Positions 1,653 to 60,000 of a stretch of 64,000 nt of DNA are shown here, piece by piece. Below the pieces are notes generated by a model, which saw only the letters and a program-made list of their open reading frames with translations, had not been told where the DNA came from and did not search any database. The translations under genes were made by a program, and so were the position numbers. Position 1 is the first letter of the stretch. Each line of letters opens with the position of its first letter. Origin of the DNA: an uncultured Planctomycetia bacterium (GTDB taxonomy: Bacteria > Omnitrophota > Gorgyraeia > 1-14-0-20-64-10); contig CAYJWF010000001.1 of assembly GCA_964373805.1 (NCBI GenBank), forward strand, positions 47,181-111,180. Direction: 5' to 3'.

Positions 1653-3095
1653 TCACGCCCTTCCGTTCAGACGATGGCTGACCTCTTTCATGAGCTGCTC
1701 CTGCAGATCTCCCAGGGGAACCCTTTTGAACACCTGCTCAAAGAATCCTTCCACGATGAGCCGTTCCGCCTCTGGCCGAGGGAGTCCTCGACTCATCAGG
1801 TAAAAGCTCTGCTCCTCATCCACAGGCCCGACGGCCACCCCATGGGTGCAGCGCACGTCGTCCGCCTCGATCTCCAACATAGGAACCGAGTCGGCTTTCG
1901 CTCCTTGGCTTAACAGGAGGTTCCGATTGGCCTGGTAGGCATCCGATTTCTGCGCCTCTTTTCGAATCCGAATCAGTCCCGTGTAGATCGATTGGGATCG
2001 ATCTTTGAGGGCGCTCTTGTACAGGAGGTCGCTTGTCGTGTGGGGGGCCCGATGGTCTTGAAGCGTGTGGAAGTCAAAATGTTGATCGGCTTGTTCAAAG
2101 AAGACTCCCAGCAGATCGGACCGACTCCCAGGTTCCGACAATTCCGTTTCCACCTGGGCTTTGGTCAGGCAACTTCCTAGGCCGACCAAGAGGTTGAAGA
2201 ATTGGGCATCCCGTTTCAAGACCGCCCGCTGGGTGTAAAGTTGCGTGGTGGCGAGGTTCCATCGTTGAAGGTGGAGGTACCGGAGGCTGGCCCCTTCTTG
2301 GATAACGATCTCCACCATCTCATCGGCAAAAAGCGGTTGTGCACCTACCCCTACGTTTTTGGCTGCGCCAGCGGCCAGTTCAGGGAAGTGCCGCACATCA
2401 GCGCGGCCTACCCCTACGTTTTTGGCTGCGCTGGGGCGCGTGGTGGCGCTTCCGACAGCGCCAGCCGCTGCGCTGGGGCGCGTGGTGGCGCTTCCGACAG
2501 CGCCAGCCGCCGCGCTAGCGGCCAATCTAGAAAAGTCCCGCGCATCAGCGCGGGGCTCCCCATCGGATCTCCTCTCATCGATCACGGTCACCTCAGCGCC
2601 GGCTCCCACGACCAAAAGGGTGTGGGGAAAGATCGGTCCGTTTCCCCCCTGGGCCTCCACCCAGCACCTGATAGGAAGTCTCACCCGGACTCCTTCCGGG
2701 ATGTAACAGAAGATCCCGGGATGGAAGAGGGCCTGATGCAGGGCGATGAATTTTGAGAGTCCCTGAGGGGTTCCGGTGCGAAAGAGATGCTCCTCGACCA
2801 GCTCCGGAAACTGTCGGAGGGCCGTGTCAAGGTCCGTTACGATGACCCCGTCCCGGACCGATTCCGAGGGGAGTTCCTCCCAGCCTGCCTGGAAGGCAGG
2901 AACGTCCTGCTCACCCTCGATCGAGGTTCTCGCTTTCGCGAGGATGGGTAAACTCCCGCGAGAATCAAACTCTCCCTCTGAGAGGTGAAGCTGGGCCGGG
3001 TCGGTCCGGCGCCACTCCTCGTCGGTCTTGGTCGGCCAGGGAAGGGCTTCGAACCGTTTCCAGGCCTCCTGCCGGAACTCCTTGACGTTAACCAA
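1653..3095 (-). CDS. sufD: Fe-S cluster assembly protein SufD carrying an in-frame repeat-element insertion
   Basis: SufD-like C-terminal half (LYTGLIRI..., SRGL...EAERLIVEGFF); ORF-track 5' extension to 3176 is Arg/Ser-rich and judged spurious, likely TTG start at 3095 overlapping sufB stop; contains ~70-aa Ala/Gly-rich insert encoded by palindromic repeat at 2345-2557. Confidence 0.7.
   Translation of the reverse strand: MVNVKEFRQEAWKRFEALPWPTKTDEEWRRTDPAQLHLSEGEFDSRGSLPILAKARTSIEGEQDVPAFQAGWEELPSESVRDGVIVTDLDTALRQFPELVEEHLFRTGTPQGLSKFIALHQALFHPGIFCYIPEGVRVRLPIRCWVEAQGGNGPIFPHTLLVVGAGAEVTVIDERRSDGEPRADARDFSRLAASAAAGAVGSATTRPSAAAGAVGSATTRPSAAKNVGVGRADVRHFPELAAGAAKNVGVGAQPLFADEMVEIVIQEGASLRYLHLQRWNLATTQLYTQRAVLKRDAQFFNLLVGLGSCLTKAQVETELSEPGSRSDLLGVFFEQADQHFDFHTLQDHRAPHTTSDLLYKSALKDRSQSIYTGLIRIRKEAQKSDAYQANRNLLLSQGAKADSVPMLEIEADDVRCTHGVAVGPVDEEQSFYLMSRGLPRPEAERLIVEGFFEQVFKRVPLGDLQEQLMKEVSHRLNGRA
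2345..2557. repeat. rearranged double copy of ~105-bp GC-rich palindromic element, in-frame inside sufD
   Basis: Units L (ctacccctacgtttttggctgcgc, x2), B (tggggcgcgtggtggcgcttccgacagcgccagccgc, perfect x2) and C (gcgctagcggccaatctagaaaagtcccgcgcatcagcgcggggctc); reverse complement of the copy at 28866-28972. Confidence 0.8.
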
Positions 3096-5574
3096 CCGAT
3101 CCCTCCATCTCCAATTGGATGAGCCGGTTGAGTTCCACCGCGTACTCGAGCGGCAGCTCCTTGGCGAATGCCTCAAAGAAGCCGTTCACAATCATCGTGG
3201 TCGCCTCCTGCTCTTTAAGTCCTCGGCTCATCAGGTAGAACAGCTGCTCCTCCCCCACCTTGCTCACCGTCGCCTCGTGTTCGATCCGCACCTGTTCGGC
3301 ATCAATCTCCATGGTGGGATAGGTATCCGATCGGGAGATTTCGTCCATCAGCAACGCATCGCAGCGAACCGAAGATTTCACATGCTCGGCCTGAGGATAG
3401 ACCTTCACCAACCCTCGGTAGCTGGTGCGGCCGCCGTCTTTGGAGATCGACTTTGACAGGATCGTGGAGCTGGTTTCTGAAGCGGCATGAACCATCTTGG
3501 CTCCGGCGTCTTGGTGCTGGCCCTTGCCAGAAAACGCCACCGAAACGACTTCCCCTCGGGCCTTGCGCCCCATCAAATAAACCCCGGGGTACTTCATGGT
3601 CAGCTTTGAGCCCAAATTTCCATCGAGCCATTCAACGATCGCATTCTCATAGGCGATGGCCCGTTTTGTGACCAGGTTGTACACGTTCTTTGACCAGTTC
3701 TGGATTGTCGTGTATCGGATGTGCGCGTGGGGCATGGCCACGAGCTCCACCACCGCCGAGTGAAGGCTGTCGGACGAATAGGTAGGAGCCGTGCAGTTGT
3801 GGACGGCAAAACCACGAGCCAGGTAAGCGTTCGGCGCACGGTCCATCTCGATGTTAAAGACCGGTCCTTCATAAGGAGCACGTCGAATTTCTTTCACCGG
3901 TACAAGGAAGGAATCTCCTTGGCGGCGGACTTCACCCATCTGCCTATTGGGGGAATAATAAATGATGTACTGATCCTGCCGAGTTATGGGTCGCCCCAGG
4001 ATCGTATCCTTTCCTCCTTTACGTAAGGAGATGGTTGCGTAATGGCCTTGACGTGCCAGAAGCTCCTGGAGCTGTCGAGCCAAGTTCAAAGAAACAGTCG
4101 AAGCGCGGAGCATGGTATGGGCTCGCCGATACCAACTCCCATCCCCCAGAAAGTACGTCTCCAACAGATGAGCCTGTTTCTCTGGTGGAAGCTCCATGAT
4201 CGTCTTGCTCAGCTGCTTCGTCGATGCCCCTTTGCCGCAGCTTTCAAGGCAAAGCTCCCTGAGAGGGCGGGAGTAGACTACCACGTTAATTCCATGTTTC
4301 TTGCGGTCTACGACTTCCATAGCCCGCTTGCCCGTCACCTCGCGAATAAGTTTCTTGGCCTCTTCCACCAGGGCCCGGTCTGTGGAGCCGAATGAGAGTG
4401 CGACAACCGGCATCCGCAGGGTCTTGTGGACAAACGTAGATCCTTCGGCCAGGTAGTAGCCTAGGAGGCGCAGAGCAGGTACGGTGTACCGAGGATCATC
4501 TTGGGTCTTCTTTGGGATTGGGAAGACGATGAAATCTCCTCGCTGAAGTTTGCCCGCTTCTATGAAATGGGGTTCCGTTGTAAGAAGCTTGGAGGTGCTC
4601 ACCTCTCCAAGCCAGTGGCCGCGCGCTTTCCGGGCGACGCGAACATCCTCTCGCTGGACACCCAGCACAGGGTGCTCCGGTGTGAGGCGAAAGCTGTTTC
4701 CAGAAGACAGTGGCTGGATCGTGATCAGCTCGCCACGGTAGGGACGCACGCGACTGGCCGCAACCTTTGCCTCCTCACCGTTACTGTTCAAAACGCTGTC
4801 GCCTGGCTGGATCGATTCGATGTTTACCCAGCGTTGGCCGGTAGAAACCTGTTCGCCTGCAGGCAGGCATCCCTCTATGTAATGCACGCTGGATCCCTCG
4901 TCGGCGATGATCAAGGTCCGTTCGAACTGGCCCATGTTCTCCGCGTTGATTCGGAAATAGGCCTGCAAGGGAATGGCTACCTTCACCCCTTTCGGAACGT
5001 AGATAAAGCTTCCTCCCGACCAGACCGCGGAGTTTAAAGCGGAAAACTTGTTGTCCGCTGAGGGGATCACCGTGCCAAAGTACTTTTTCACCAACTCCGG
5101 ATATTTCTTGAGGCCATCGTCCATCCCAAGGAAGATGACCCCTTGTTTCTCGAGATCTTCTCGAAGAGAGTGGTACACGACCTCAGACTCGTATTGGGCG
5201 GTGACCCCCGCGAGGAACTTCCGTTCCGCCTCTGGGATTCCCAATTTTTCAAAGGTGTTCTTGATATCCTCGGGAACCTCCTCCCAGCTTTTCTCCTGTT
5301 TATCCACCGGCTTCAGGTAGTAATGGATGTTGTCGAAGTGGATCTGGGAAAGGAGCGTCAAATCGGCCCAGGCCGGTAAGGGCTTCCGGTTGAAATGTTC
5401 CAGCGCCTTTAATCGAAGTTCCCGCATCCAATCCGGTTCCGACTTCATCCAGGAGATCTCCTCCACCACTTCCTTGGAGAGGCCCTTCTTGGCCTTGAAG
5501 AGGTAATGCTCCGGATCGTGGAATCCGTACTTCTCTTCGTAGTCTTTCCCGATATTGAGCGGTTTATCCGTCAT
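3088..5574 (-). CDS. sufB: Fe-S cluster assembly protein SufB interrupted by an intein (extein 470 aa + intein 358 aa)
   Basis: 828 aa instead of ~470; SufB N- and C-terminal halves; conserved EGC|TAP site split by insert beginning CLPAG and ending VHN followed by CTAPTYSS. Confidence 0.9.
3796..4869 (-). mobile_element. intein with LAGLIDADG homing-endonuclease domain inside sufB
   Basis: Insert residues 236-593: N-terminal Cys (codon 4867-4869), C-terminal His-Asn (3796-3801) followed by +1 Cys (3793-3795); two LAGLIDADG motifs [10 protein letters not shown] and [10 protein letters not shown]; exteins rejoin to canonical SufB ...[13 protein letters not shown]... Confidence 0.85.
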
Positions 5575-6815: not shown

Positions 6816-6920
6816 CCTATAATCTAGGATACCAGGAAACATGACTCTTTTGTCAACTATTTTCATGGGGTCTGACCCCATGGGGTTGCAGGGCGTTTTA
6901 CAATTTGATACAGTACGTCT

Positions 6921-7454: not shown

Positions 7455-7845
7455 GGTAGAGAAGCAGCTTTCAATTTTTCTGGAGAATCGGCCCGGCGGA
7501 TTGGCCAAGATCTGCGGCACCTTGGCCGAGGCTGGGATCAACGTCTTGGCCTTGTCGATCCACGACACCGTGGACCATGCCATCATTCGGCTCCTGGCCG
7601 ATCGGCCGGTCAAAGCGCTGCTCATCCTGGAGCAGTTGGGGCTTTACATCCTGGAGTCGGATGTCGTCGTCGTGGAGTTGGACAACCGATCCGGGGCGTT
7701 GGCCGATGTGGCCCGGAAGCTGGCCCGGGCCGATATCAACATCGAGTACGCCTACTGCTCGGCCACCGAGCATCAACCCATGGGGAGCCTCATCCTCCGG
7801 ACCGATGAGGCGGACCGAACCCTGGAACTTTTGAGCGAGACGTAG
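7447..7845 (+). CDS. ACT-domain protein
   Basis: 132 aa, two ACT-like beta-alpha-beta-beta-alpha-beta units (LENRPGGLAKI..., VELDNRSGALADV...). Confidence 0.6.
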   Translation: MVKVEKQLSIFLENRPGGLAKICGTLAEAGINVLALSIHDTVDHAIIRLLADRPVKALLILEQLGLYILESDVVVVELDNRSGALADVARKLARADINIEYAYCSATEHQPMGSLILRTDEADRTLELLSET

Positions 7846-7851
7846 GTTTTA

Positions 7852-7890
7852 GGGTCAGACCCCGGCACTTGGGGGTCTGACCCTTTAGAT
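7852..7890 (+). terminator. rho-independent terminator-like hairpin built from two inverted GGGTCAGACCCC units
   Basis: gggtcagacccc ggcacttg ggggtctgaccc followed by tttagatttt, directly after the ACT gene stop. Confidence 0.6.
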
Positions 7891-7905: not shown

Positions 7906-8460
7906 ATGGCTCTTCAATTGATGGATGCGATTCCTTCCTTTAACCTGCCTGCCACCGATGGGAAGACCTATTCTCTGGACTCCTTTTCGTCCGCCAAACT
8001 CCTCGTGGTGATCTTCAGTTGCAACCACTGTCCCTATGTTCAGGCGTACGAGGATCGGATGATCGCCCTCCAACGGGATTACGGCCCCAAAGGGGTTCAG
8101 TTGGTGGCGATCAATTCCAATGAGACAGGGAACCATCCAGAGGATGATTTTCCTCACATGGTGGAGCGCTCCAAGGCGAAGGGATTTAACTTCCCGTATC
8201 TGCGGGACGAAACCCAGGAAGTGGCCCGTGCCTACGGGGCGGAGCGAACCCCGCACATCTTCCTCTTCGAAAAGGTGCCTGGCACCATTTCAGAAGGTGC
8301 CAGGCACCGACTCCGCTACACCGGCCGGATCGACGACAACTGGCAGAACCCATCCGCGGTCAAGTCCCATGATCTGAGAAACGCCCTCGATGCCCTCCTC
8401 GCCGGCAAGGAACCCCCCTCGAACACCCCCGCCATCGGCTGCACCGTCAAGTGGAAGTAG
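7906..8460 (+). CDS. thioredoxin-family thiol-disulfide oxidoreductase with 12-aa in-frame hairpin-encoded insert
   Basis: CNHCP active site, C-terminal GCTVKWK; insert VPGTISEGARHR encoded by palindrome 8274-8308. Confidence 0.7.
   Translation: MALQLMDAIPSFNLPATDGKTYSLDSFSSAKLLVVIFSCNHCPYVQAYEDRMIALQRDYGPKGVQLVAINSNETGNHPEDDFPHMVERSKAKGFNFPYLRDETQEVARAYGAERTPHIFLFEKVPGTISEGARHRLRYTGRIDDNWQNPSAVKSHDLRNALDALLAGKEPPSNTPAIGCTVKWK
8274..8308. repeat. hairpin of two 13-mers GGTGCCTGGCACC / GGTGCCAGGCACC inside CDS
   Basis: ggtgcctggcacc atttcagaa ggtgccaggcacc. Confidence 0.8.
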
Positions 8461-9052: not shown

Positions 9053-9118
9053 GATTTCTACGGGAAAGCTGCGTAATTTCGCCATCCCTTTCTACTGAGC
9101 GTGGTAAACTACTGCTCG

Positions 9119-9550
9119 ATGTTCACCCTCGAGAAATCTCTCGAAAAACTGGCCAAGGCGCACCGGGAGATCGTGGCCCTTTATCTGTTTGGATCTCAGG
9201 CCACGGCGAAGAAGGGGCCTTTGAGTGATGTAGACGTCGCTCTGTTACTGGATGAGGGACGGGTCCAGCCTCGGAAACGATTCGATCTTCAGCTTGAGCT
9301 GCTCGGCGAGGCGATGCACCGTTGTAGGCGATCCGATGTCGACCTGGTGTTGTTGAACGAGGCAACCCCCTTGTTGGCCTACGAAGTGATCCGATCCGGT
9401 CGGCTCCTTTACGAGCGGGACCACGATGCCCGCGTTTCCTTTGAGGCCAAGGCACTTCAACATTACCTGGATCTAGAGCCGTTCTACCGGGTTGGTCGCC
9501 AGTACCTCAGGCACCAGCTTCTTCATGCAAAGGGGCATGGTCAATCCTGA
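9119..9550 (+). CDS. nucleotidyltransferase (MntA-like antitoxin)
   Basis: LFGSQATAKKGPLSDVDVALL minimal NTase motif; start moved to ATG 9119. Confidence 0.7.
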   Translation: MFTLEKSLEKLAKAHREIVALYLFGSQATAKKGPLSDVDVALLLDEGRVQPRKRFDLQLELLGEAMHRCRRSDVDLVLLNEATPLLAYEVIRSGRLLYERDHDARVSFEAKALQHYLDLEPFYRVGRQYLRHQLLHAKGHGQS

Positions 9551-9950
9551 GGTCGTTGCCAATCGGCTGAGTAGACTTAAGGAGTACCTGGGCTATCTGC
9601 GCAGCCTCCGGCGCTATCCTTACAAGCGGTTTTCCAGTGATCCCTTTATTCGAGGCAGTGCCGAGCGGTACCTTCATTTGGCCATTGAGTGCTGCCTGGA
9701 CATGGGCAACCACCTGATCGCGGACCGGGAGCTTCGCAAGGCCCAGGATTACCGAGAGGTATTTCTCATCCTGGGGGAAGTCAAGATCCTTCCTCCCGCG
9801 TTTGCCAAGCGGATCGCTCCCATGGGAAGCTTCAGGAACATCCTCGTTCACGATTATCTGCGAGTAGATCCGAAGAAGGTGTACGAGTTCCTGCACAAGC
9901 ACCTTGCCGATTTCACCCGGTTCGCCACGGCCATGGCGAAGTTCCTTTAG
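9537..9950 (+). CDS. HEPN-domain toxin (HepT/DUF86)
   Basis: FRNILVHDY (Rx4-6H HEPN motif); overlaps upstream NTase gene; start moved to ATG 9537. Confidence 0.7.
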   Translation: MVNPEVVANRLSRLKEYLGYLRSLRRYPYKRFSSDPFIRGSAERYLHLAIECCLDMGNHLIADRELRKAQDYREVFLILGEVKILPPAFAKRIAPMGSFRNILVHDYLRVDPKKVYEFLHKHLADFTRFATAMAKFL

Positions 9951-10875: not shown

Positions 10876-10947
10876 GGGGTCAGACCTGTACCAGGTACAA
10901 AATCGGCTCAACTTTTAAAAAGTTAGGCCCAAATTGTACCTGGTACC
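10876..10947. repeat. MITE-like palindromic element (GGGGTCAGACC + GTACCAGGTAC ... AACTTTTAAAAAGTT ... GTACCTGGTAC)
   Basis: Terminal inverted 12-13-mers around AT-rich central palindrome; near-identical copy at 48459-48521. Confidence 0.7.
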
Positions 10948-15491: not shown

Positions 15492-15526
15492 GGGTGCCAG
15501 GCACCATTTTCGGATGCCTGGCACCC
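15492..15526. repeat. GGTGCCAGGCACC-type hairpin (12-bp stem) in divergent intergenic region
   Basis: gggtgccaggca ccattttcgga tgcctggcaccc. Confidence 0.7.
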
Positions 15527-19826: not shown

Positions 19827-20339
19827 CTAAACCTGAGGGGTCTGACCCCATTTGGTTTTCTTTTCGAGGGTTATAAAACTGAAGGGGTATGGGTTCTCTT
19901 GATCCGGGGAAAAATCCTCCCGAGAGGCTTCCTGCCAGACCGAGCGATCCAAAGAGAATAGAGGTGTATCCCCCGGAAAATCATGGTGGATCAAGGTGAG
20001 GTAGATGCGATTCGCGAACGGCAAGGCCTGCTCAAAGATCTGGCCACCGCCAATGACAAAGACCTCCTCGTCTCTCTCACAGAGGCGAAGCGCTTCCTCC
20101 AAGGAGTGGGCCACCAAGCCGTCTTGAGCTCTGAAATCGCTCTGTCGGGTGACGACCACGTTGGTTCTACCGGGCAAGGCCTTTCCGATCGATTCGTATG
20201 TTTTTCGTCCCACGATGATGGGGTGGTTCATGGTGAGTTGCTTAAAGTGCTTCAGATCCGCGGGCAAGTGCCACGGGAGCCGATTCTTGTTTCCGATGAC
20301 CCCGTTTTGGGAAGCTGCACAAAGGATGGAGATCATCAC
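19827..20339 (-). CDS. folA: dihydrofolate reductase
   Basis: [14 protein letters not shown]...[13 protein letters not shown] signature; last 8 codons plus stop supplied by the 13-mer repeat. Confidence 0.8.
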
Positions 20340-22672: not shown

Positions 22673-24051
22673 CTACAAGCGAGATCGCCACGCCCCCGCT
22701 TAAAGCGGGGGCTCGCGATGACGTACGGTTAGAAACGCGGGAGATGCTCCTTAACGTGGGGCCGGCCCATCCGGCGATGCACGGGATCATCCGGATCGTC
22801 TTGAAACTGGATGGGGAGACGATTCGCTCGAGCGATGTGGAGATCGGGTACCTCCATCGGGGTTTCGAAAAGATGTCGGAAGTGGTCACCTATAACGGGG
22901 TGATCCCTTACGCCGATCGGTTAAACTACGTCTCACCCCTCATCAACAACGTAGGCTACTGCATGGCCGTCGAGAAGCTGCTCGGGATCGAAACCCCGGA
23001 GCGATGCCAATACATCCGGGTGATCGTATCGGAAATCTCTCGGGTCACCGACCATTTGACCTGCATTGGGGCCTCGGCCATGGAACTCGGGGCCTTCACC
23101 GTGTTCCTCTACATGATCAAGGCCCGGGAGTTTCTCTGGGAGTTGGTGGAGGTGGTGACCGGGGCGAGGCTCACCGTTTCCTATTGCCGAGTGGGGGGAA
23201 TCAAGGCCGACCTGCCGGAGGGATTTTCCGATCGGTGCCGGAAGGCGATCGCCGAGACTCGGAAGGTGCTGGTGGAGGTGGACAAGCTCTTGACCCGGAA
23301 TCGGATCTTTGTCGACCGGATGAAAGGGACCGGTCGGATCTCCCAGGAGGAAGCGATCTCCTACGGGATCACCGGTCCTTTCTTAAGAGCGACCGGGGTG
23401 AACTACGACGTTCGCAAGGTTTCACCCTATTTGGTGTACGACCGGCTGCAGTTTGACGTGCCGCTCGGTTCCCATGGGGACAATTTGGACCGATATTACG
23501 TCCGGATGGAGGAGATGGAGCAGTCGATGCGGATCATCGAGATCTGCCTGAAGGGGATTCCCGCCGGGCCTATTGGAGTTGAGCCGGAGACCGGCAAGCC
23601 CATCTCTGCGGCTGAGATGGTTGATAAAGGAAAGATGGGCCGGATCCATGAGATTGCCGACAAGGTGGCGGTGACCGACCCTACTTTGGAAGGAGCCTCC
23701 AAACCGGTTTACGGAGGGATCGCTGCCGGGCAGAAGCGGGTTTTCCTGCCGCCCAAAGAGGATACCTACGGGAACATCGAGGGCCTCATGCAGCATTTCA
23801 AGCTGGTCATGTTTGGGCATGGTATCCGGCCCCCTCAGGGAGAGGTTTATTTCCCGGTCGAAGGGGCCAACGGCGAGTTGGGATTCTACGTGGTGAGCGA
23901 CGGTTCGGACAAGGCGTACCGGGTTCGGGTGCGGCCGCCCTGCTTTACCATTATGTCGGCGTTACCGAGGCTGCTGACAGGCGATATGGTGGCCGATCTG
24001 GTCCCGACCTTTGGGTCGGTCAACATGATCGGCGGTGAGCTCGACCGATGA
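22654..24051 (+). CDS. nuoD: NADH-quinone oxidoreductase subunit D
   Basis: LNVGPAHPAMHG 49-kDa subunit signature; ATG 22654 lies inside REP-like repeat (ATGGTGACGAAGCAATCTCC). Confidence 0.85.
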   Translation: MVTKQSPTSEIATPPLKAGARDDVRLETREMLLNVGPAHPAMHGIIRIVLKLDGETIRSSDVEIGYLHRGFEKMSEVVTYNGVIPYADRLNYVSPLINNVGYCMAVEKLLGIETPERCQYIRVIVSEISRVTDHLTCIGASAMELGAFTVFLYMIKAREFLWELVEVVTGARLTVSYCRVGGIKADLPEGFSDRCRKAIAETRKVLVEVDKLLTRNRIFVDRMKGTGRISQEEAISYGITGPFLRATGVNYDVRKVSPYLVYDRLQFDVPLGSHGDNLDRYYVRMEEMEQSMRIIEICLKGIPAGPIGVEPETGKPISAAEMVDKGKMGRIHEIADKVAVTDPTLEGASKPVYGGIAAGQKRVFLPPKEDTYGNIEGLMQHFKLVMFGHGIRPPQGEVYFPVEGANGELGFYVVSDGSDKAYRVRVRPPCFTIMSALPRLLTGDMVADLVPTFGSVNMIGGELDR

Positions 24052-24077: not shown

Positions 24078-25886
24078 ATGGATTTTAAGCAGCTAGAACC
24101 GAAGGCGGCCGAGATCATCGCGCGGTACGAGCAGAAACAGGCGGCGATGCTGCCACTTTTGTGGCTCCTCCAGGAGAGGATCGGCTACATTCCCGTGGAG
24201 GGGGAGGCCTGGGTTTCGGAGAAGTTGGGCGTCAGCATCGCCCATGTGGATGAGGTTGTCTCCTTCTATACCCTGTTCCATCGAAAGCCGGTTGGTAAAC
24301 ACCACATCCAGGTTTGCACGACGCTCCCCTGCCTCTTAAACGGGGCCAAACAGGTTTTGGCCCAATTGGAGGAACGGCTAGGAATCGGGGTAGGGAAGAC
24401 TTCTTCCGATGGGAAGGTGACCCTTTCCACGGTTGAGTGCCTCTGCGCCTGCGAAGTGGCGCCGGTGGCCCAGGTCAACGACCGATACGTAGGGCCGTTG
24501 ACCCCGGAGTCGGTCCCGTCCTTCCTAAAAACGGTGTCTGACACCTCGCAGTTGCGAGAAGCGGTGTCAGACACCACCTACGTTTCCACCGATGGGCCGG
24601 TTCTCTCCAGGCGATTCAGGAACGCCGAGGGGAACTGGTTTGATGCCTATGTCGCCGATGGAGGGTATCAAGCGGCGAAGAAGGCGCTGACCTCCATGAC
24701 GCCTCAACAGGTGATCGACGTCGTCTCCCGGTCGAACCTTCGTGGACTGGGAGGGGCAGGCTTTCCGACTGGAAAGAAATGGGGGTTTGTCCCCAAGAAC
24801 AGCGCGAAGCCGGTCTATTTGGTGGTCAACGCCGATGAAGGGGAACCAGGCACTTTCAAGGATCGGTACATTCTGGAGCGGGACCCCCATGCCCTGATGG
24901 AAGGGATGATCATCGCTGCTTACGCCATTGGGGCGCACAAGGCGTACGTCTACGTTCGGGGGGAGTACGTCCGGCCGTTCCACCGGTTCTCGCAAGCGGT
25001 CCAAGAAGCTACCCAACACGGATGGCTGGGGAAGAAGATCCAGGGAACCAGTTTTGACCTGGAGGTGGTGGTTCATCGAGGGGCTGGGGCCTACATCTGT
25101 GGGGAAGAGACGGCCCTGTTGACCTCTCTCGAAGGAGGCAAAGGTTTCCCCAAATTAAAGCCGCCGTTTCCGGCGATCTCTGGGCTTTTCAAGTGTCCCA
25201 CCATGGTGAACAACGTGGAGACCCTGGCCTGTGTTCCACCGATCGTTCGAAACGGTCCCGAGTGGTTTGCGAAGCTGGGAACCCTTAAGCAGGGAGGGAC
25301 CCGCCTGTTCAGCCTCTGTGGGCATGTCAACCGTCCTGGCCTATACGAGGCCCCGGTGGGGGTAAGCTTAAGGGAGCTCATCTATCATCATGCCGAAGGG
25401 ATTCGAGGAGGCCGCGAGCTTAAGGCGGTTGTCCCCGGCGGAATCTCGGCCAAGATCTTGACCGCCCAGGAGATCGATGTGGGCATGGACTTCGATTCGC
25501 TTTCGGCGGCCGGGACGATGGCCGGATCGGCCGGGGTGATTGTGATGGATGAGACGACCTGCATGGTGGAGGCCCTGGTGAGCGCGGCCCGCTTTTTTGC
25601 CGATGAGTCCTGCGGGCAATGTTCCCCTTGCCGGGAAGGGACCGGCTGGATCCTGAAGATCCTGACTCGGATGAAGGAGGGCCAGGGCCGTCCGCAAGAT
25701 TTGGAGAGTCTCCTTTCCATTGCGGGGAACATGGAGGGCAAGACGATCTGCGTCTTTGCCGATGCGGCCGCTTGGCCGGTGCAGAGCTACATCACGAAGT
25801 TCCGGGAAGAGTTTGAATACCACGTCCGAGAGGGGCGGTGCGATTTAGAGGATCACCCGTTCGTCCTTAAGCATGTCGAAGGATAA
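24078..25886 (+). CDS. nuoEF: fused NADH-quinone oxidoreductase subunits E and F
   Basis: N-terminal 24-kDa NuoE (CTTLPC...CLCACEVAP) and C-terminal NuoF (GLGGAGFPTG, CGQCSPCREG) in one 602-aa ORF; junction carries a palindromic repeat. Confidence 0.8.
   Translation: MDFKQLEPKAAEIIARYEQKQAAMLPLLWLLQERIGYIPVEGEAWVSEKLGVSIAHVDEVVSFYTLFHRKPVGKHHIQVCTTLPCLLNGAKQVLAQLEERLGIGVGKTSSDGKVTLSTVECLCACEVAPVAQVNDRYVGPLTPESVPSFLKTVSDTSQLREAVSDTTYVSTDGPVLSRRFRNAEGNWFDAYVADGGYQAAKKALTSMTPQQVIDVVSRSNLRGLGGAGFPTGKKWGFVPKNSAKPVYLVVNADEGEPGTFKDRYILERDPHALMEGMIIAAYAIGAHKAYVYVRGEYVRPFHRFSQAVQEATQHGWLGKKIQGTSFDLEVVVHRGAGAYICGEETALLTSLEGGKGFPKLKPPFPAISGLFKCPTMVNNVETLACVPPIVRNGPEWFAKLGTLKQGGTRLFSLCGHVNRPGLYEAPVGVSLRELIYHHAEGIRGGRELKAVVPGGISAKILTAQEIDVGMDFDSLSAAGTMAGSAGVIVMDETTCMVEALVSAARFFADESCGQCSPCREGTGWILKILTRMKEGQGRPQDLESLLSIAGNMEGKTICVFADAAAWPVQSYITKFREEFEYHVREGRCDLEDHPFVLKHVEG
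24533..24575. repeat. hairpin of two 13-mers GGTGTCTGACACC / GGTGTCAGACACC with inner palindrome, at nuoE-nuoF junction
   Basis: ggtgtctgacacc tcgcagttgcgagaagc ggtgtcagacacc; codes KTVSDTSQLREAVSDTT. Confidence 0.75.
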
Positions 25887-28638: not shown

Positions 28639-29382
28639 ATGCCGCGTAAACGGGAACTGACGTTCTGGGAACGAATTTACCTACCGGAGATTGTCCGGGG
28701 GGTGTGGATTACCTCTCGTCACTTCTTCGTTAATCTCTTTCTCCACACGGCACATCTCTTTGGGCTGTTCAAGGACCGCGCGGCCTCGGTCACCTTTCAG
28801 TATCCGGAGCAGCCCCGACCGTTGGCTCCCCGTTTAAGGACTCGGCATCGGTTAACGGTTCGGCCAGAGCCCCGCGCTGACGCGCGGGACTTTTCTGGAT
28901 TGGCCGCTGACGCAGCGGCTGGCGCTGTCGGAAGCGCCACCACGCGCTCCGGCGCAGCCAGAAACATAGAGGAAGGGACTCCCCGGTGTGTGGCCTGCAT
29001 GCTCTGCGAGACGGTCTGCCCGGCCAAATGCATCACGATCGTCGCTGGAGAGCACCCGGATCCGAACGTGGAGAAATATCCGATTCGGTTCGACATTGAT
29101 TTAGGGGTCTGCGTCTACTGCGGCTACTGTGTCGAGGCCTGTCCGGAGGATGCCATTCGGATGGACACCGAGATCCTGGACATCGCCGCCTATTCTAGGG
29201 CCCAGATGAAGCTGGACATCCATGAGCTCATGGATCCCAAGCTGCGCAAGCCGGTGAACCAGTGTGAACTAAGGTTTCCACACCAATGCGCCCTGCACGG
29301 TGGTCAGATGAAAGGGAACTGGCAAGACGTCTATGGGAAAACGGAACAGGGACTGTCCCCGCAGGGGACTGTCCCTGGCTAA
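28639..29382 (+). CDS. nuoI: NADH-quinone oxidoreductase subunit I with in-frame ~35-aa repeat-encoded insert and C-terminal extension
   Basis: Two 4Fe-4S motifs CVACMLCETVCP and CVYCGYCVEACP; insert PRADARDFSGLAADAAAGAVGSATTRSGAARN between N-terminal segment and first ferredoxin motif. Confidence 0.8.
   Translation: MPRKRELTFWERIYLPEIVRGVWITSRHFFVNLFLHTAHLFGLFKDRAASVTFQYPEQPRPLAPRLRTRHRLTVRPEPRADARDFSGLAADAAAGAVGSATTRSGAARNIEEGTPRCVACMLCETVCPAKCITIVAGEHPDPNVEKYPIRFDIDLGVCVYCGYCVEACPEDAIRMDTEILDIAAYSRAQMKLDIHELMDPKLRKPVNQCELRFPHQCALHGGQMKGNWQDVYGKTEQGLSPQGTVPG
28866..28972. repeat. single copy of the same ~105-bp palindromic element, in-frame inside nuoI
   Basis: gagccccgcgctgacgcgcgggacttttctggattggccgctgacgcagcggctggcgctgtcggaagcgccaccacgcgctccggcgcagccagaaacatagagg. 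Confidence 0.8.
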
Positions 29383-31836: not shown

Positions 31837-32394
31837 ATGAACAATTCAGAGCGGTTAAAAATACTCATGGAATCCGGAAGGTCGATATTTACGCCTCTGG
31901 ACATGCGCCTGTTGTGGCAGATGAATGCCTTGAGCGCCAAGATCAGCGCTGTGCGGATGGTGGAAAATGGGCTCATGATGAGGTTGGCCAATGGCTATTA
32001 TGCTCTGAATGATCGGTATAACCCGTATGAACTCGCCAACCGCCTGGTCTCGCCTTCCTACGTCTCGTTTCAGGCCTCTCTTTTTCACGCGGGGATCAAT
32101 TTTCAAGCGCGTCGGGAGATCGGATCCGTGGCGACTCGAGACCGCCAAAGGAAAGTGGGGGACGTCCTTTATACCTATGCCGCCATGAAGAAGGAGTTGT
32201 TTTTCGGCATGGAAGGTGTGGTGACTCGCGAAGGCGTGTCGATAGCGAGCCCTGAGCGCGCGATCCTGGACAGTTTTTACTTCGGGTATTTACCGGATAT
32301 CGACGATGCCGGAAAATTAAATAAAACCACTTTGGCGAAATTAAGCGCTGGGTACCCTAAGACCGTTCAAAAGAAGGTGAAAAATCTTTTATGA
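31837..32394 (+). CDS. AbiEi-family antitoxin (type IV TA transcriptional regulator)
   Basis: 185 aa, precedes and overlaps an AbiEii-like NTase gene; AbiEi-like N-terminal wHTH region. Confidence 0.5.
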   Translation: MNNSERLKILMESGRSIFTPLDMRLLWQMNALSAKISAVRMVENGLMMRLANGYYALNDRYNPYELANRLVSPSYVSFQASLFHAGINFQARREIGSVATRDRQRKVGDVLYTYAAMKKELFFGMEGVVTREGVSIASPERAILDSFYFGYLPDIDDAGKLNKTTLAKLSAGYPKTVQKKVKNLL

Positions 32395-33140
32395 GCCGCT
32401 TGTTTGAACGGGACACGCATAAAAGGTATCTTGCGCTTTTACTGACAGAGATGGCAAAGGCATTTCCTGAGAAGATCGCGTTTAAAGGCGGCACCTGCGC
32501 TCATTTTTTTTACAACCTTCCGCGATTCTCATTTGATCTGGATTTCGATATGGTCCGAGCCTTTAAGGCCGTCGATGTCGATCGATTCCGTGAGCTTGTG
32601 GAAAAACATGGACAAGCGAAGGATTTTTATGACAAGGCAAACACCTTATTTTGCCTTTTTGATTACGGGAAAGGCTATCCCAATATCAAAATCGAGCTGA
32701 ATAAGCGTGTGTGGACCCATAATGTTTATAAACCCGTCTGGTTGATGGGGGTGCCGATTTCTATTGCGGATGAAACCACGGTTCTTACGAATAAGCTGGT
32801 CGCGCTCACGGATCGAAAGACCGCGGTCGCGAGAGACTTATACGATATCTGGTACTTTTTAAAGGCGGGGTTTCCGGTCCACGATGCCCTTGTCCTCGAG
32901 CGCACCGGCAAGGATGCCCGAACCTATTTGGCATCCATCACCGCGTTTATCAAGAAAACCTATACGCCCCGTAACGTGTTGCACGGGCTGGGTGATGCGC
33001 TCGATGAAAAACAGAAGGCTTGGGCAAAGGATCATCTTGTTTCAGAAACCATACAGGAGATCAATCGGCGTGAGTCGGGGGGACGCTCCATTTTGGGACA
33101 CTCTACTGCGGAAAGAACCGCGTCCCCATCGCCACCCTAA
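32391..33140 (+). CDS. AbiEii/AbiGii-family nucleotidyltransferase toxin (DUF1814)
   Basis: FKGGTCAHFFYNLPRFSFDLDFD NTase core; C-terminal 20 codons read through direct repeat copy 2. Confidence 0.6.
   Translation: MSRLFERDTHKRYLALLLTEMAKAFPEKIAFKGGTCAHFFYNLPRFSFDLDFDMVRAFKAVDVDRFRELVEKHGQAKDFYDKANTLFCLFDYGKGYPNIKIELNKRVWTHNVYKPVWLMGVPISIADETTVLTNKLVALTDRKTAVARDLYDIWYFLKAGFPVHDALVLERTGKDARTYLASITAFIKKTYTPRNVLHGLGDALDEKQKAWAKDHLVSETIQEINRRESGGRSILGHSTAERTASPSPP
33075..33115. repeat. 40-bp direct repeat copy 2
   Basis: tcggggggacgctccattttgggacactctactgcggaaag. Confidence 0.7.
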
Positions 33141-39736: not shown

Positions 39737-40084
39737 TTGCGTTATTCTAGCTGCACGGTGACTCCTGTGGGACTTCATAGAGAGCTTAATCGTGTAGTCG
39801 ATCTGATTAAGAAGCGGTACCATCCGAAGGAGATTATTCTCTTTGGATCTCTGGCAAGAGGACGCAGTCGTTCCGGCAGCGATATTGATCTCGTTGTGAT
39901 CAAATCTACTCGAAAATCCTTTGTAGATCGCTTGCGGGAAGTGGCCTTGCTCCACCACGCCCGTGTCGGGGTCGACATTCTAGTCTACACGCCTAAAGAG
40001 TGGGAACGATTGCAGCACGAGAAGCGTTGGTTTATCCTGGACGAGGTCTTAAAGAAGGGGCGAATCCTCTATCGTGCCGCCTGA
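39737..40084 (+). CDS. nucleotidyltransferase (MNT antitoxin-like)
   Basis: LFGSLARGRSRSGSDIDLVV minimal NTase motif. Confidence 0.7.
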   Translation: MRYSSCTVTPVGLHRELNRVVDLIKKRYHPKEIILFGSLARGRSRSGSDIDLVVIKSTRKSFVDRLREVALLHHARVGVDILVYTPKEWERLQHEKRWFILDEVLKKGRILYRAA

Positions 40085-40499
40085 TACAGGAGCCGTTGGC
40101 CACTGGTTACGATTTGCGGCAGATGATTTAAAAGCTGCTCGGTCGGTCCTGCGAGAAGGTCTTTACCACGTGACCTGTTTCCACGCCCAGCAAGCGGTTG
40201 AAAAAGGTCTAAAGGCGTATCTGGTGGCGAGAGGGAAAGCGTTGCCGCGTGAGCATCACCTGATTAACCTTTTACAGCACTGTGTCCGTTCAAAACTAAG
40301 CGGTAGTAGAGGAGTAGAGCATGCTTGTAAGATCTTGGATCAGTACTATCTACCTACTCGGTATCCAGATGCCCTAGTGGGAAGCCTCCCTCAAGGATTA
40401 CCCACTCGTTCCCACGCAACAGAGGCCATCGACCTGGCCGAGACGGCTTTGCGAGCCGTTCGGCGATCCATCAGAAGAAAATCTGTTTTCCCCGGGTAA
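40074..40499 (+). CDS. HEPN-domain protein
   Basis: FHAQQAVEKGLKAYL and YYLPTRYPD HEPN features; overlaps NTase gene. Confidence 0.7.
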   Translation: MPPDTGAVGHWLRFAADDLKAARSVLREGLYHVTCFHAQQAVEKGLKAYLVARGKALPREHHLINLLQHCVRSKLSGSRGVEHACKILDQYYLPTRYPDALVGSLPQGLPTRSHATEAIDLAETALRAVRRSIRRKSVFPG

Positions 40500-42623: not shown

Positions 42624-43609
42624 CGGTTATAGAAACCATGGAACGAAAACTGGGATGTGCCACCCGAGACGCGTACGGCCAGACCCTGGTCGAGTTGGGA
42701 AGAAACAATCCCCAGATCGTGGTGTTGGACGCGGATCTCGCCTCCTCCACGAGAACCCGGCTATTTGCCAAGGAGTTCCCGGACCGATTCTTTAATGTGG
42801 GGATCTCAGAGGCCAACATGGTGGGGATGGCCGGTGGGTTAGCTTCCTCTGGGAAAATCCCCTTTATCTCCAGCTTTGCCTGCTTCATGACCTGCAAGGC
42901 GTACGATCAGCTCCGGATGGCGGTGGCGTATCCCCATTTGAACGTCAAGGTGGTCGTTTCCCATGGTGGGATCAGCGTAGGAGAAGATGGAGTCTCCCAG
43001 CAGTCGATCGAAGACGTGGCCCTGATGACGTCGCTTGCCCATTTTACCGTGATCGTCCCGGCCGATGAGCATGCCACGCGGGCGCTGGTGAAGGAGGCCG
43101 CGTCAACGGTGGGGCCCATCTACCTTCGAACCGGAAGGCCCAAGGCCCCTTTGATCTATCAACAGTCGTCGGCCTTTTCCATGGGGAAAGGGAATCTGCT
43201 TCGCCAGGGAAAGGATGTCACCGTGATGGCCAACGGCCTATTGGTCTTTGAAGCGCTGGTGGCGGCCGAGGAGTTGGAGAAGGCAGGGATTTCCGCCGCC
43301 GTGGCGGATCTCCACACGGTTAAGCCGCTGGATGAGTCGCTGATTCTCTCTCAGGCGAAGGCCACCGGGGCGATTGTCACCGCCGAGGAGCACCAGATCT
43401 GGGGCGGCTTAGGTTCGGCGGTAGCCCGCATGGTAGCCCGGACGCATCCCGTTCCGATGGAGTTCGTGGCCATCCAAGACACCTATGCCGAATCGGGCAA
43501 GCCGGAAGAGCTGTTCGAAAAGTACGGGCTTACCTCCCAGCACGTCGTCGAGGCGGTCCGGCGGGTGTTGGAGAGAAAATCTAAAGGGGTCAGACCCCAT
43601 CAGCAATGA
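42620..43609 (+). CDS. transketolase, C-terminal (pyrimidine-binding) subunit
   Basis: Transketolase Pyr and C-terminal domains; last codons KGVRPHQQ encoded by GGGGTCAGACCCC repeat. Confidence 0.8.
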   Translation: MTVIETMERKLGCATRDAYGQTLVELGRNNPQIVVLDADLASSTRTRLFAKEFPDRFFNVGISEANMVGMAGGLASSGKIPFISSFACFMTCKAYDQLRMAVAYPHLNVKVVVSHGGISVGEDGVSQQSIEDVALMTSLAHFTVIVPADEHATRALVKEAASTVGPIYLRTGRPKAPLIYQQSSAFSMGKGNLLRQGKDVTVMANGLLVFEALVAAEELEKAGISAAVADLHTVKPLDESLILSQAKATGAIVTAEEHQIWGGLGSAVARMVARTHPVPMEFVAIQDTYAESGKPEELFEKYGLTSQHVVEAVRRVLERKSKGVRPHQQ

Positions 43610-46244: not shown

Positions 46245-46679
46245 ATGACCCGCCCTCCGGTGTTCATGAAAGGAAATCCTGATCTTGGGTATGGACATCC
46301 TAGGCCCTCCGGTGGGACGGAGTTGTACGCCTGGCTCTTCATGCGGCTCTCCGGGATTCTGCTGTTGGTGTTGGCCCTCGGGCATTTCTTCATCATGCAT
46401 CTTTTTAACAGCGTTCACACCATCGACTACGATTTTGTCGCGGCCCGGTACCTGGGACTTTTCTGGCGTGGCTATGATCTCGCCCTGCTGTGGCTGGCGA
46501 TGATCCACGGGATCAATGGAGCCCGCATGCTGGCCGACGATTACCTGCGTCCACCGGTTCGAGGGTGGGTGGTGAAGGGGCTGTATCTCGTGGGAATTTT
46601 GTTTCTGGTGTTGGGCACTTGGGTGATTGTAGCGTTCCAACCGATGGTGCCAGGCACCAAAACCCTGAAACTTTTATAA
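46245..46679 (+). CDS. sdhD: succinate dehydrogenase membrane anchor subunit
   Basis: 144 aa hydrophobic; position between sdhC and sdhA; last codons read into repeat. Confidence 0.65.
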   Translation: MTRPPVFMKGNPDLGYGHPRPSGGTELYAWLFMRLSGILLLVLALGHFFIMHLFNSVHTIDYDFVAARYLGLFWRGYDLALLWLAMIHGINGARMLADDYLRPPVRGWVVKGLYLVGILFLVLGTWVIVAFQPMVPGTKTLKLL

Positions 46680-46691
46680 AGTTAAGCCAAA

Positions 46692-46705
<14 letters not shown>
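46646..46705. repeat. MITE-like element: GGTGCCAGGCACC ... AACTTTTATAAAGTT ... GGTGCCAGGCAC
   Basis: Spans sdhD stop and sdhA start; supplies ATGGTGCCAGGCAC = MVPGT. Confidence 0.7.
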
Positions 46706-48458
<1,753 letters not shown>

Positions 48459-48521
48459 ATGGTACCAGGTACAATTTCGGCTCAACTTTTTAAAAGTTAT
48501 ACCGATTTTGTACCTGGTACC
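48459..48521. repeat. MITE-like element (GGTACCAGGTACA ... AACTTTTTAAAAGTT ... TGTACCTGGTACC)
   Basis: Between sdhA stop and sdhB; near-identical to 10887-10947. Confidence 0.75.
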
Positions 48522-58256: not shown

Positions 58257-58613
58257 ATGCATGGGGTAATTGTTATGGAAATTTCATGGGCGGTTACTCG
58301 AGAAAAGATTGAGCAGGCTGTTAAGAGGATCATCCGTTTTGAGCAGCCAAGGAGGGTTGTTTTGTTTGGTTCCGCGGCGCATGGCAATGCCACACTTCAC
58401 AGCGACGCGGATATTCTCGTGGTAACCAAGAAGGAAGTGGACAGCTCTCGTAAGGAGAGTGTTCGGATCCGTCGGCAACTACGTGGTATTTCCATGCCAA
58501 TGGACATCCTGGTGATTTCAGAAAATCGCCTAAAGGCATTGGCCGACCATCCCGGACTCATCTATCGGGAGGCCCTGCGGCATGGAAAAGTCCTCTATGA
58601 GGCCGCAGCCTGA
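58257..58613 (+). CDS. nucleotidyltransferase (MNT antitoxin-like)
   Basis: LFGSAAHGNATLHSDADILVV. Confidence 0.7.
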   Translation: MHGVIVMEISWAVTREKIEQAVKRIIRFEQPRRVVLFGSAAHGNATLHSDADILVVTKKEVDSSRKESVRIRRQLRGISMPMDILVISENRLKALADHPGLIYREALRHGKVLYEAAA

Positions 58614-59007
58614 AAAGGGGATTCCGGGATCGCCAAGAGAATGGCTGATCCACGCTGAAAGTGATCTAAAACTGGCCTGCTTGGCCAGAGATTCCGAAGG
58701 TGTTTTACCGGAACAGAGCTGTTTTCACTCCCAGCAGACGGCTGAGAAAGCCTTGAAAGCTGTTCTCCTTTTCAATAAGATCGATTTCCCCCTTACCCAT
58801 GATATCGAAGAGCTACTTGAACTCGGTAAACAAGGAGGTTTAACGCTGCCCTCCCAGATAGAGGAGGTAGGTAGCCTTACTCCCGATGCCGTGGAGGCCC
58901 GCTACCCTGGTCATTTTGAAGAAATTACATCTCCCGACGTTGATGAGGCAATCCGCGTAGCTGAAGTAGTTCTTCAGTGGGCTAGGGAGATCGTTGGAGA
59001 GTCGTAA
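58582..59007 (+). CDS. HEPN-domain protein
   Basis: FHSQQTAEKALKAVL, EARYPGHF HEPN features; overlaps NTase gene. Confidence 0.7.
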   Translation: MEKSSMRPQPEKGIPGSPREWLIHAESDLKLACLARDSEGVLPEQSCFHSQQTAEKALKAVLLFNKIDFPLTHDIEELLELGKQGGLTLPSQIEEVGSLTPDAVEARYPGHFEEITSPDVDEAIRVAEVVLQWAREIVGES

Positions 59008-59025: not shown

Positions 59026-60000
59026 ATGGTTTCCAGCCGGTCGCCGTACATCAGGCATCTGTTTGTCTGCGTGAATCAGCGGGATCCCGGTGTGACCTGC
59101 TGTTCTCACACTGGCGGGGAGGCGATCCTGGAGGAGCTTAAAGGCTACGTGAAGGCCAACGGATTACAGGGAAAGGTGCGGGTGAGCAAGTCCGGCTGCA
59201 TGGACCTTTGCGCGCAGGGGCCGAACGTGATGGTGGAGCCGGACCACCGGTGGTACCGCCATGTGATGCTGGAGGATGTGGAGAAGATTATTGAGAAAGA
59301 GCTTAAACCGCTCATGCAAAAGGGGTCAGACCCCTTCTGGTCTCTATCGGTGCCAGGTCTTAGACCTGGCACCGATTTCCCATCTGCCCAGCCGATCCGC
59401 GCCTTTCTCTTTGATCTGGGCAACGTCTTGGTTCAGTTTGACCACCTGCGGGCGGCCGAGCGGATCGCGGCCAACGCGAAGGTAACCCCAGAAGAGCTGT
59501 ACCGGCTGTTCTTTGAGTCTCCCCTGATCATCGAGCACGATGAAGGCAAGATCTCGACCGCCACCTTTTTCGAACGGTTGAAGGCCCAGATTGGGTTATC
59601 CCTGTCTTTTGGAGAATTCTTGGAAATCTGGAATGGGATCTTCACCGAGAATCGGCCGGTCGCCCAATTGGTCCGACGGTTGCTCGCCCAGTACCCCTGT
59701 TATCTCATCTCGAATACCAACCGGCCCCATTTCGAACATTGCGTTGAACGTTATCCGGTGCTCAAGGAGCTCACCGGGCGGATCTTATCCTATGAAGTGG
59801 GGGTGTTGAAGCCGCATCCGAAGATTTATCGCCGGGCATTGGAGCTGGCCCAGATACCGCCTTCCCAGATCTTCTACGTGGACGATCGAGCCGATCTCAT
59901 TGAGGCCGGTCGGTCGATCGGGTTCCAGGTGCATCGGTTTACCGACACCGAGGGACTTCTTTCCGAGTTGAAGGCCAAGGGGATCAACCACGGAGTTTAG
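59026..60000 (+). CDS. fusion ORF: thioredoxin-like [2Fe-2S] ferredoxin domain + HAD-family hydrolase, joined through palindromic repeats
   Basis: N-terminal CxxC...C...C ferredoxin-like (CCSHTGGE...SGCMDLCAQGPNV); C-terminal FLFDLGNVLV...DD HAD motifs; linker KGSDPFWSLSVPGLRPGT encoded by GGGGTCAGACCCC and GGTGCCAGGTC-tta-GACCTGGCACC; possible internal GTG start at 59350. Confidence 0.55.
   Translation: MVSSRSPYIRHLFVCVNQRDPGVTCCSHTGGEAILEELKGYVKANGLQGKVRVSKSGCMDLCAQGPNVMVEPDHRWYRHVMLEDVEKIIEKELKPLMQKGSDPFWSLSVPGLRPGTDFPSAQPIRAFLFDLGNVLVQFDHLRAAERIAANAKVTPEELYRLFFESPLIIEHDEGKISTATFFERLKAQIGLSLSFGEFLEIWNGIFTENRPVAQLVRRLLAQYPCYLISNTNRPHFEHCVERYPVLKELTGRILSYEVGVLKPHPKIYRRALELAQIPPSQIFYVDDRADLIEAGRSIGFQVHRFTDTEGLLSELKAKGINHGV
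59322..59373. repeat. GGGGTCAGACCCC 13-mer plus GGTGCCAGGTC-tta-GACCTGGCACC hairpin inside fusion ORF linker
   Basis: Seen directly at 59322-59334 and 59349-59373. Confidence 0.75.

Follow-up and report, generated by a model that had tools for sequence, protein, structure and literature searches.

A dispersed palindromic repeat pair encodes the NuoE-NuoF junction of a fused complex I protein and is younger than the fusion

The DNA analyzed here is a 64,000-nucleotide (nt) stretch of contig CAYJWF010000001.1 from an uncultured bacterium (hereafter the window), in which the complex I proteins NuoE and NuoF are joined in one open reading frame (ORF) and the junction between them is encoded by a palindromic hairpin at 24533-24575. 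The ORF (24078..25886, forward strand) encodes 602 amino acids (aa), and both the ORF list and Pfam confirm that it is a single one, as a preliminary description of the locus had stated. It combines a thioredoxin-like 2Fe-2S NuoE domain (PF01257, aa 11-152; 24108..24533, forward strand) with the FMN/4Fe-4S domains of NuoF, namely PF01512 (aa 216-387), an SLBB domain and PF10589 (aa 501-582), and is in that sense a fused NuoEF. The Pfam domains of NuoF begin at aa 216, and stand-alone solved NuoF chains align from query aa 168 (for example, residues 11-419 of 6hl2_B to query 168-584), which places the NuoF-homologous part at aa 168-602 (24579..25883, forward strand). Because PF01257 ends at aa 152 and the solved NuoF chains start at query aa 168, the hairpin is the coding sequence of the junction; the stretch that the palindromic structure encodes, and hence the interdomain junction, comprises the 14 residues V153-T166. 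In an AlphaFold2 model built with 42 homologs (predicted template modeling score 0.87), the last helix of NuoE spans aa 146-153 and is followed by predicted coil at aa 154-167, with a mean predicted local distance difference test score of 67 at residues 151-160 and 61 at 161-170, falling below 50 at 164-166.

The two arms of the hairpin, to which no strand is assigned, are GGTGTCTGACACC (24533..24545), which codes for V153-S-D-T156, and GGTGTCAGACACC (24563..24575), which codes for V163-S-D-T166. A repeat search returned them as an inverted repeat with 13 of 13 positions complementary and 17 nt between the arms, so the palindromic 13-mer pair reported at the NuoE-NuoF junction is indeed present. 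Arm 2 is the exact reverse complement of arm 1, and either arm is also its own reverse complement save for the center base, which is T in the first and A in the second, and thus mutually complementary. The spacer had been described as itself palindromic; this holds for its first 12 nt, a mini-palindrome TCGCAgtTGCGA (24546..24557, again without strand) that is predicted to stack on the main stem, but not for the remaining 5 nt, GAAGC, which are non-palindromic and do not participate. The predicted folding energy of a 71-nt stretch is -29.7 kcal/mol, compared to -14.3 +/- 2.7 for shuffled sequences (z = -5.7; none of 200 shuffles as low), and all pairs of the stem are Watson-Crick, with no G-U pairs. 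Rfam 15 gave no match in the whole window at gathering score, and merely chance-level matches (E > 1) at 24450-24650.

The arms belong to a family of short palindromes dispersed across the window. Searching with the pattern GGTGTCWGACACC and up to two mismatches gave 11 matches vs. 0.97 expected, a count that none of 100 shuffles reached; the additional sites, GGGGTCWGACCCC and GGTGCCWGGCACC, are all perfect palindromes too, with compensating differences. The unit is 13 nt long and self-complementary, with the pattern GG-N-R-N-C-W-G-N-Y-N-CC, and occurs in at least five variants (GGTGTC-W-, GGGGTC-W-, GGTGCC-W-, GGTACC-W-, and GGGGAC-W-) that carry compensating changes on both half-sites. A listing of all perfect palindromes adds GTACCWGGTAC and GGGACWGTCCC variants. 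Five 11-nt cores, which were selected post hoc with the data already seen, occur 19 times in the window vs. 0.27 expected (maximum of 3 in 100 dinucleotide shuffles), and a core-independent count of W-centered perfect palindromes whose arms are 6 nt or longer gives 22 vs. 8.9 +/- 2.9 (maximum 17). In an alignment of 42 units that includes their 12-nt flanks, conservation beyond the core is limited to G at -1 and C at +1, i.e., the ends of the 13-mer. Stop codons appear in only 2 of the 30 variant/frame combinations. Frame 2 of the unit reads VSDT, GSDP, VPGT, or GTVP with either center base and in either orientation, the peptide being independent of orientation because the W center is a synonymous third codon position. 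With so few stops, and small polar peptides in either orientation, any part of a protein that is not under constraint should tolerate a unit in frame. A full-text literature search with six 13-mers returned unrelated eukaryotic papers only, and one with the repeat-encoded peptides returned no match.

Most units are paired, lying 15-50 nt apart and forming pairs of 30-60 nt. The center bases are complementary in 14 of the 18 pairs from the window and its relatives (binomial p = 0.015, some of the pairs being homologous), and the pairs are therefore true hairpins and not direct duplications. This bears on a simpler origin of the nuoEF structure, in which a chance-palindromic linker segment of 10 codons was duplicated locally in tandem (...TVSDTSQ / ...AVSDTTY): the repeat search did return a direct repeat (24 nt, 79% identity), and its 30-nt spacing is a multiple of 3. 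A tandem duplication predicts identical centers, however, whereas those observed are T and then A, complementary like those of most family pairs; the 13-mer is also a member of a dispersed family, and in the related locus L081 the same arms lie 39 nt apart around an unrelated spacer. We consider a local duplication very unlikely.

The age of the fusion was assessed from relatives with fused and with separate genes. The 120 best protein matches (67-79% identity) are all fused, 591-635 aa long, and contain both Pfam domains. Among loci with at least 69% NuoF identity and a readable state, 22 of 22 are fused; at 68% or below, nuoE and nuoF are mostly separate adjacent genes. Other fusions (L008, L095, L100, and the L012 type) have unrelated linkers and probably arose independently, and candidate NuoEF fusions in Legionella, Lysobacter, and similar genomes were rejected, as frames and stop codons show separate adjacent genes. 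The linkers of 18 fused relatives are 26-29 aa long and palindrome-free, with a recurrent ending '...EPxxF/H-I/V-STDGP'; we refer to these as canonical. The fused NuoEF proteins of more than 120 protein clusters likewise have PF01257 and PF01512/PF10589 in one chain, and share architecture and linker length with the window protein, which differs from them in linker residues 153-167 alone, these being repeat-encoded. In a neighbor-joining tree computed without the linker, the element-bearing sequences are nested among canonical-linker relatives at a minimum of 3-4 separate positions; the tree is rough, with short internal branches, and the number of events is uncertain.

These comparisons decide against the origin proposed in the preliminary description, namely that an intercistronic hairpin element, open in frame, removed a stop and a start codon and so created the nuoEF fusion in this lineage. 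The idea has some appeal: the elements are of intergenic type and almost stop-free, a repeat at the split ferredoxin and HAD genes of L167 (see below) supplies a stop and a start, showing that such elements can toggle the fusion state, and the nuoE-nuoF spacers of the nearest separate-gene relatives, L007 and L094 (68% NuoF identity), are unusually long, at 120-165 nt (L007 330-470, L094 10450-10575). That description had suggested looking for the element in the spacers of separate nuoE and nuoF genes. The window 13-mer element is absent from the nuoE-nuoF spacers of both L007 and L094, and the one hairpin found there, with a 17-bp stem (CTCGCCAAGATGCCGA...TCGGCATCTTGGCGAG, in L007), is unrelated in sequence to the 13-mer family. 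At 69% NuoF identity and above, every relative is fused, most of them with canonical, unstructured linkers of equal length, and the element-bearing linkers nested within this fused clade carry differing variants. A widespread fused NuoEF with a homologous, palindrome-free linker had been named in advance as the observation that would speak against the proposal, and the 120 best matches and the 18 canonical linkers are precisely that. The fusion predates the element in nuoEF, and we regard an element-driven fusion of these genes as extremely improbable.

Among the closest relatives, the same linker carries different members of the family. That of L001 (77% identity) holds three tandem copies of GGGGTCWGACCCC with a 15-nt period, giving GSDPVGSDPTGSDP. 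Those of L082 and L083 hold two copies of GGTACCWGGTACC, arranged as GGTACCAGGTACC-N5-GGTACCTGGTACC and giving VPGTGxVPGT, with an extra decayed GSDP unit in L083. L081 has the GGTGTCTGACACC...GGTGTCAGACACC pair of the window around its 26-nt spacer. When the linker DNA is aligned, the units fill the same two or three slots, and element-bearing linkers are 28-30 aa long (28 in the window), close to the canonical ones. Because the lengths are nearly equal, replacement fits better than simple insertion.

An alternative is that the hairpin is a selected structure of the nuo mRNA that evolved in place, serving as a ribosome pause between the two domains that aids folding or Fe-S/FMN loading, or as a stability or processing site. 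The strength and perfection of the predicted fold are what such a structure would show, and the linker-coding stretch is structured in five close sequences (z = -6.8 in L001, -5.8 in L083, -3.9 in L082, -3.9 in L081, and -3.0 in the window when flanks are included), with arms that are identical in the window and L081 despite differing spacers. These five are the only ones, however: the linker-coding RNA of the 18 canonical relatives has no excess structure (z = -2.0 to +1.6), and a structured linker is not conserved across fused nuoEF genes. Moreover, the structures are not of one type (three tandem palindromes in L001, pairs in the others), the 13-mers themselves recur at unrelated loci, both in spacers and in other genes, and a stem without G-U pairs is expected of a DNA-level repeat. 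A selected mRNA structure is in our judgment unlikely.

Family members were also counted over the whole of the related loci. There are 5 in 20.8 kb of L001, 4 in 7.5 kb of L081, 6 in 16.8 kb of L083, and 2 in 2.6 kb of L082, compared to a handful of single or paired matches in about 1.2 Mb of distant genome loci and none in 968 kb of metagenome loci outside L083. The family is confined to close relatives of the window genome. L083 has three pairs, located in the NuoEF linker, inside NuoG, and in the nuoH-nuoI spacer, the latter two being identical. All L083 units are of the GGTACC type and all L001 units of the GGGGTC type. Such dominance of a single variant per relative, together with the dyad symmetry of the units, would suit a reading of the 13-mers as binding sites of a dimeric protein, or as uptake-signal-like sequences accumulating by molecular drive; uptake sequences, too, occur as 'dialects' and are found where proteins are under little constraint. 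Five variants with three compensated positions within one 64-kb window would be hard for a single recognition protein to accommodate, and the complementary centers of the pairs point to hairpin logic, which makes sites of this kind quite unlikely as an explanation.

Presence and absence of the element can be compared directly between close relatives outside nuo as well. L166, whose ferredoxin-HAD protein is 83% identical to that of the window, lacks elements both in the HAD linker and in the spacer upstream of the Ni-SOD gene (Sod_Ni), where L163 and L166 have near-identical flanks and 48 nt in the window organism replace 9 nt in L166. L166 has a pair of its own at 7657-7684 (GGGGTCTGACCCC-AA-GGGGTCAGACCCC), whose first unit supplies the TGA that terminates an upstream pyridine-nucleotide-disulphide oxidoreductase gene.

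We conclude, with a probability of roughly three in four, that the 43-nt structure in nuoEF is a passenger, one paired copy of a dispersed hairpin repeat, selfish or neutral, that is tolerated as a short polar coil in the tether between the two domains. The order of events is clear even though their number is not: the fusion came first, on the stem of a large clade and with an ancestral linker of about 28 aa, and this unconstrained linker was later overwritten by elements in the closest relatives, apparently more than once. The elements would be mobile or selfish DNA that plausibly spread as single-strand hairpins through an IS200/IS605-type tyrosine transposase (RAYT or TIRYT), or by gene conversion, and the hairpin in the nuoEF mRNA would have no dedicated role in nuo expression.

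Several observations weigh against this conclusion, above all against the part that concerns mobility. The sample consists of the 64-kb window and fragments of related genomes, the five cores were chosen after the fact, and the rough tree leaves the number of overwriting events uncertain. The near-equal lengths of linkers with and without elements (28-30 vs. 26-29 aa) do not suit simple insertion. Neither a GTAG or CGTC tag nor any other conserved flank was found in the 42 aligned units, and there is no target-site duplication in the single clean filled/empty comparison, that of L163 and L166; transposition is therefore not demonstrated. Pfam identified no transposase among 24 otherwise unannotated ORFs of the window, nor did phmmer with an approximate IS200 query, a weak probe, match any of 12,406 ORFs of the loci compared. 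Templated replacement would account for the constant linker length, and for variants that switch in both arms in concert, at least as well as transposition. Taken further, the W-centered 13-mers could represent an undescribed class of micro-repeat, tagless, duplication-free, fully self-complementary and with co-varying dialects, that spreads through templated replacement, by gene conversion or template switching, instead of transposing and that overwrites interdomain linkers, surface loops, and gene boundaries by preference. We offer this only tentatively and think it rather improbable; if true, such templated micro-repeats would be a regular driver of linker turnover in the phylum and, on occasion, of gene fusion or fission, as at the ferredoxin and HAD genes of L167.

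Of the 12 sites in the window, about 7 fall between genes or at gene boundaries, and the others are read through in frame. The preliminary description was right to call the nuoEF hairpin an intergenic-type element that is open in frame, as like pairs are present in four spacers of the window, at 7852-7883, 10887-10946, 46645-46705, and 48462-48520, and in the nuoH-nuoI spacer of L083. The first of these, GGGTCAGACCCC-N8-GGGGTCTGACCC, lies upstream of a thioredoxin-like gene (7906..8460), and within that gene a sister pair, GGTGCCTGGCACC-N9-GGTGCCAGGCACC (8274..8308), is read in frame. Compared to all three of its PDB homologs (2cvb, 2ywi, and 3u5r), the thioredoxin-like protein has a 9-aa insertion, VPGTISEGA, at a site that looks like a beta-hairpin turn. 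The other three spacers contain homologous 60-nt long forms, in which outer arms made of family 13-mers flank a central AACTTTTWAAAAGTT: one in the HDAC-cstA spacer (GTACCAGGTAC...AACTTTTAAAAAGTT...GTACCTGGTAC), one with GGTGCCAGGCACC arms upstream of sdhA, and one with GTACCWGGTAC arms in the sdhA-sdhB spacer. All three are just upstream of genes (cstA, sdhA, and sdhB). A role of the long forms as regulators of the sdh genes was considered and rejected, as one copy sits between the HDAC-like gene and cstA.

Of the remaining sites, a pair GGTGCCAGGCACC-N9-GCCTGGCACCC (15493..15525) precedes a flavin reductase gene, upstream of its likely true start. Two GGGACTGTCCC units (29349..29375) in the C-terminal tail of NuoI, whose ORF runs about 60 aa past the Fer4 domains, are common to the window and L081 (6731-6783); the GGGGACTGTCCCC pairs have the same centers (T/T) and a spacing of 16 nt in the window vs. 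40 nt in L081. Single units were found in the last codons of an E1-beta-like gene, right before the start of the next gene (GGGGTCAGACCCC, 43586..43598), at the boundary of a DHFR gene and an aconitase-family gene (GGGGTCTGACCCC, 19837..19849), and between the divergent Rrf2 and def genes (CATGGGGTCTGACCCCATG, 6864..6882). The last site, in the ferredoxin-HAD ORF (59026..60000), is a GGGGTCAGACCCC unit plus a 31-nt perfect palindrome, ATCGGTGCCAGGTCTTAGACCTGGCACCGAT, which together (59320..59376) are read in frame in the interdomain linker.

This ORF is a fusion of a 2Fe-2S ferredoxin-like domain and a HAD hydrolase, a combination that is widespread among sequences labeled as Omnitrophota. Its linker is hypervariable among relatives and forms a mosaic of repeat-encoded peptides, including VPGTGAVPGT, RYQVP (from another frame of GGTACCAGGTACC), GTVP, TVSDT, and VPGLRPGT. 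The HAD linkers also contain two repeat families that are unrelated to the 13-mers, '...(A)HPEPVEGER...PSTSSGRTE' and '...IASEAKQSQ...EIASS...PRNDG', the first of which recurs in the NuoEF linkers of P0013 and P0014. The HPEPVEGER and IASEAKQSQ peptides appear to be translated GC-rich palindromic repeats common in these metagenome-assembled genomes (MAGs), and a literature search returned no mention of either peptide family. L167 (2961-3025) and L168 have separate ferredoxin and HAD genes, and the break between them falls within a palindromic repeat of a different family, CCTTCGACAGGCTCAGGATGAGCGGCGTGTCGAAGG, which provides a TGA stop codon and an overlapping ATG start codon (ATGA overlap). 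The split in L167 is possibly a case of repeat-mediated gene fission. Repeats of this general kind can accompany fused and split states alike, and fusion by repeat read-through is plausible in principle in this group, though not for nuoEF.

Other repeats and genes of the window are recorded here for completeness. A 21-nt perfect palindrome, GCCCCCGCTTAAAGCGGGGGC (22692-22712), is located between nuoC and the conserved part of nuoD. The nuoD ORF as listed covers it with an N-terminal extension, so that it probably represents a hairpin between the two cistrons. A SufD-like ORF (1653..3176, minus strand) contains nested perfect direct repeats at 2344-2553 (2 x 42 nt and 2 x 25 nt, plus a 45-nt pair at 80%), which are read in frame, separate the SufBD N-terminal region from the core domain, give AAAGAVGSATTRPSA twice, and are of a non-palindromic kind. 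The window also encodes a giant ORF of 2835 aa (49638-58145) and toxin-antitoxin-like modules at 9101-9950, 58257-59007, 31837-33140, and 40074-40499, comprising two nucleotidyltransferase/HEPN pairs, an AbiEii-type toxin, and a lone HEPN gene.

For complex I, the picture is unchanged by these results: the NuoEF fusion is an old feature of its clade, and the repeat merely re-encodes a flexible tether. The wider significance lies in the linkers. In this lineage, which is probably Omnitrophota, interdomain linkers behave as intergenic DNA within an ORF, and in two independent fusion proteins, NuoEF and ferredoxin-HAD, they have been repeatedly overwritten by several families of palindromic repeats. 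As such repeats are able to supply stop codons, start codons, and open frames, they offer a concrete system for asking how selfish hairpin repeats remodel proteins and whether they can fuse or split neighboring genes. A practical caution also follows for annotation, namely that VSDT, GSDP, VPGT, and GTVP in proteins from these MAGs are repeat-encoded and not functional motifs.

Among known systems, miniature inverted-repeat transposable elements are defined by terminal inverted repeats with a target-site duplication and a length of 70-300 bp; the elements described here are 13-60 nt long and show no duplication in the one clean comparison. A REPIN consists of two inverted short repeats that form one hairpin together with a short spacer, and this hairpin is the replicating unit. 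The nuoEF pair has the same form, two inverted repeats and a short spacer giving a single hairpin. REPINs are mobilized by RAYTs (Bertels and Rainey 2011, PMC3116915). They are described as extragenic, and their arms are not themselves palindromic; the arms in the window are palindromic, and some copies are in frame.

The family also resembles repetitive extragenic palindromic (REP) sequences and their dimers (PMC3733652), which are small dispersed palindromes, mostly intergenic, often in close inverted dimers, and in some cases in frame. The 64-kb sample fits this outline of a high-copy repeat, with its 19 cores at 12 sites. Intragenic REPs have been analyzed by Di Nocera et al. (2013, PMC3733652), who found more than half of the inserts to be dimers or groups encoding 20-30 aa. 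Unlike REPs, the window units are only 13 nt long and fully self-complementary, and the GTAG or CGTC at the palindrome end that marks the REP superfamily is absent from all 42 aligned units. No RAYT gene was found among window ORFs by Pfam or in related loci by the weak IS200 probe. TIR families, which are tied to TIRYT tyrosine transposases, consist of self-complementary, closely spaced repeats that share a GGGGWSAS motif at the repeat end (PMC3733652). This motif is fitted by two of five variants, GGGGTCAG(ACCCC) and GGGGACAG(TCCCC), and is unmatched at positions 3-5 by GGTGTCAG (the nuoEF copy), GGTGCCAG, and GGTACCAG, i.e., the GGTGTC, GGTGCC, and GGTACC variants.

Rickettsia palindromic elements (RPEs) are, as summarized in PMC10969869, selfish palindromes that reside in frame in housekeeping genes without destroying them. 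The in-frame residence of the present repeats in genes is alike, but RPEs as outlined there are about 100-150 bp long, encode a conserved peptide of at least 30 aa, and come from an unrelated lineage, compared to 13-nt units, 13-60-nt elements, 4-aa motifs, and no sequence similarity here, so that neither size nor sequence places the family among them. The closest known model for its spread would be transposition as in REP/REPIN systems, or as in TIR systems through a tyrosine transposase. In-frame palindromic repeats as such are already established by Rickettsia RPEs and intragenic REPs, and the notable part of the present case is that one linker has been overwritten repeatedly and in parallel by co-varying palindrome variants.

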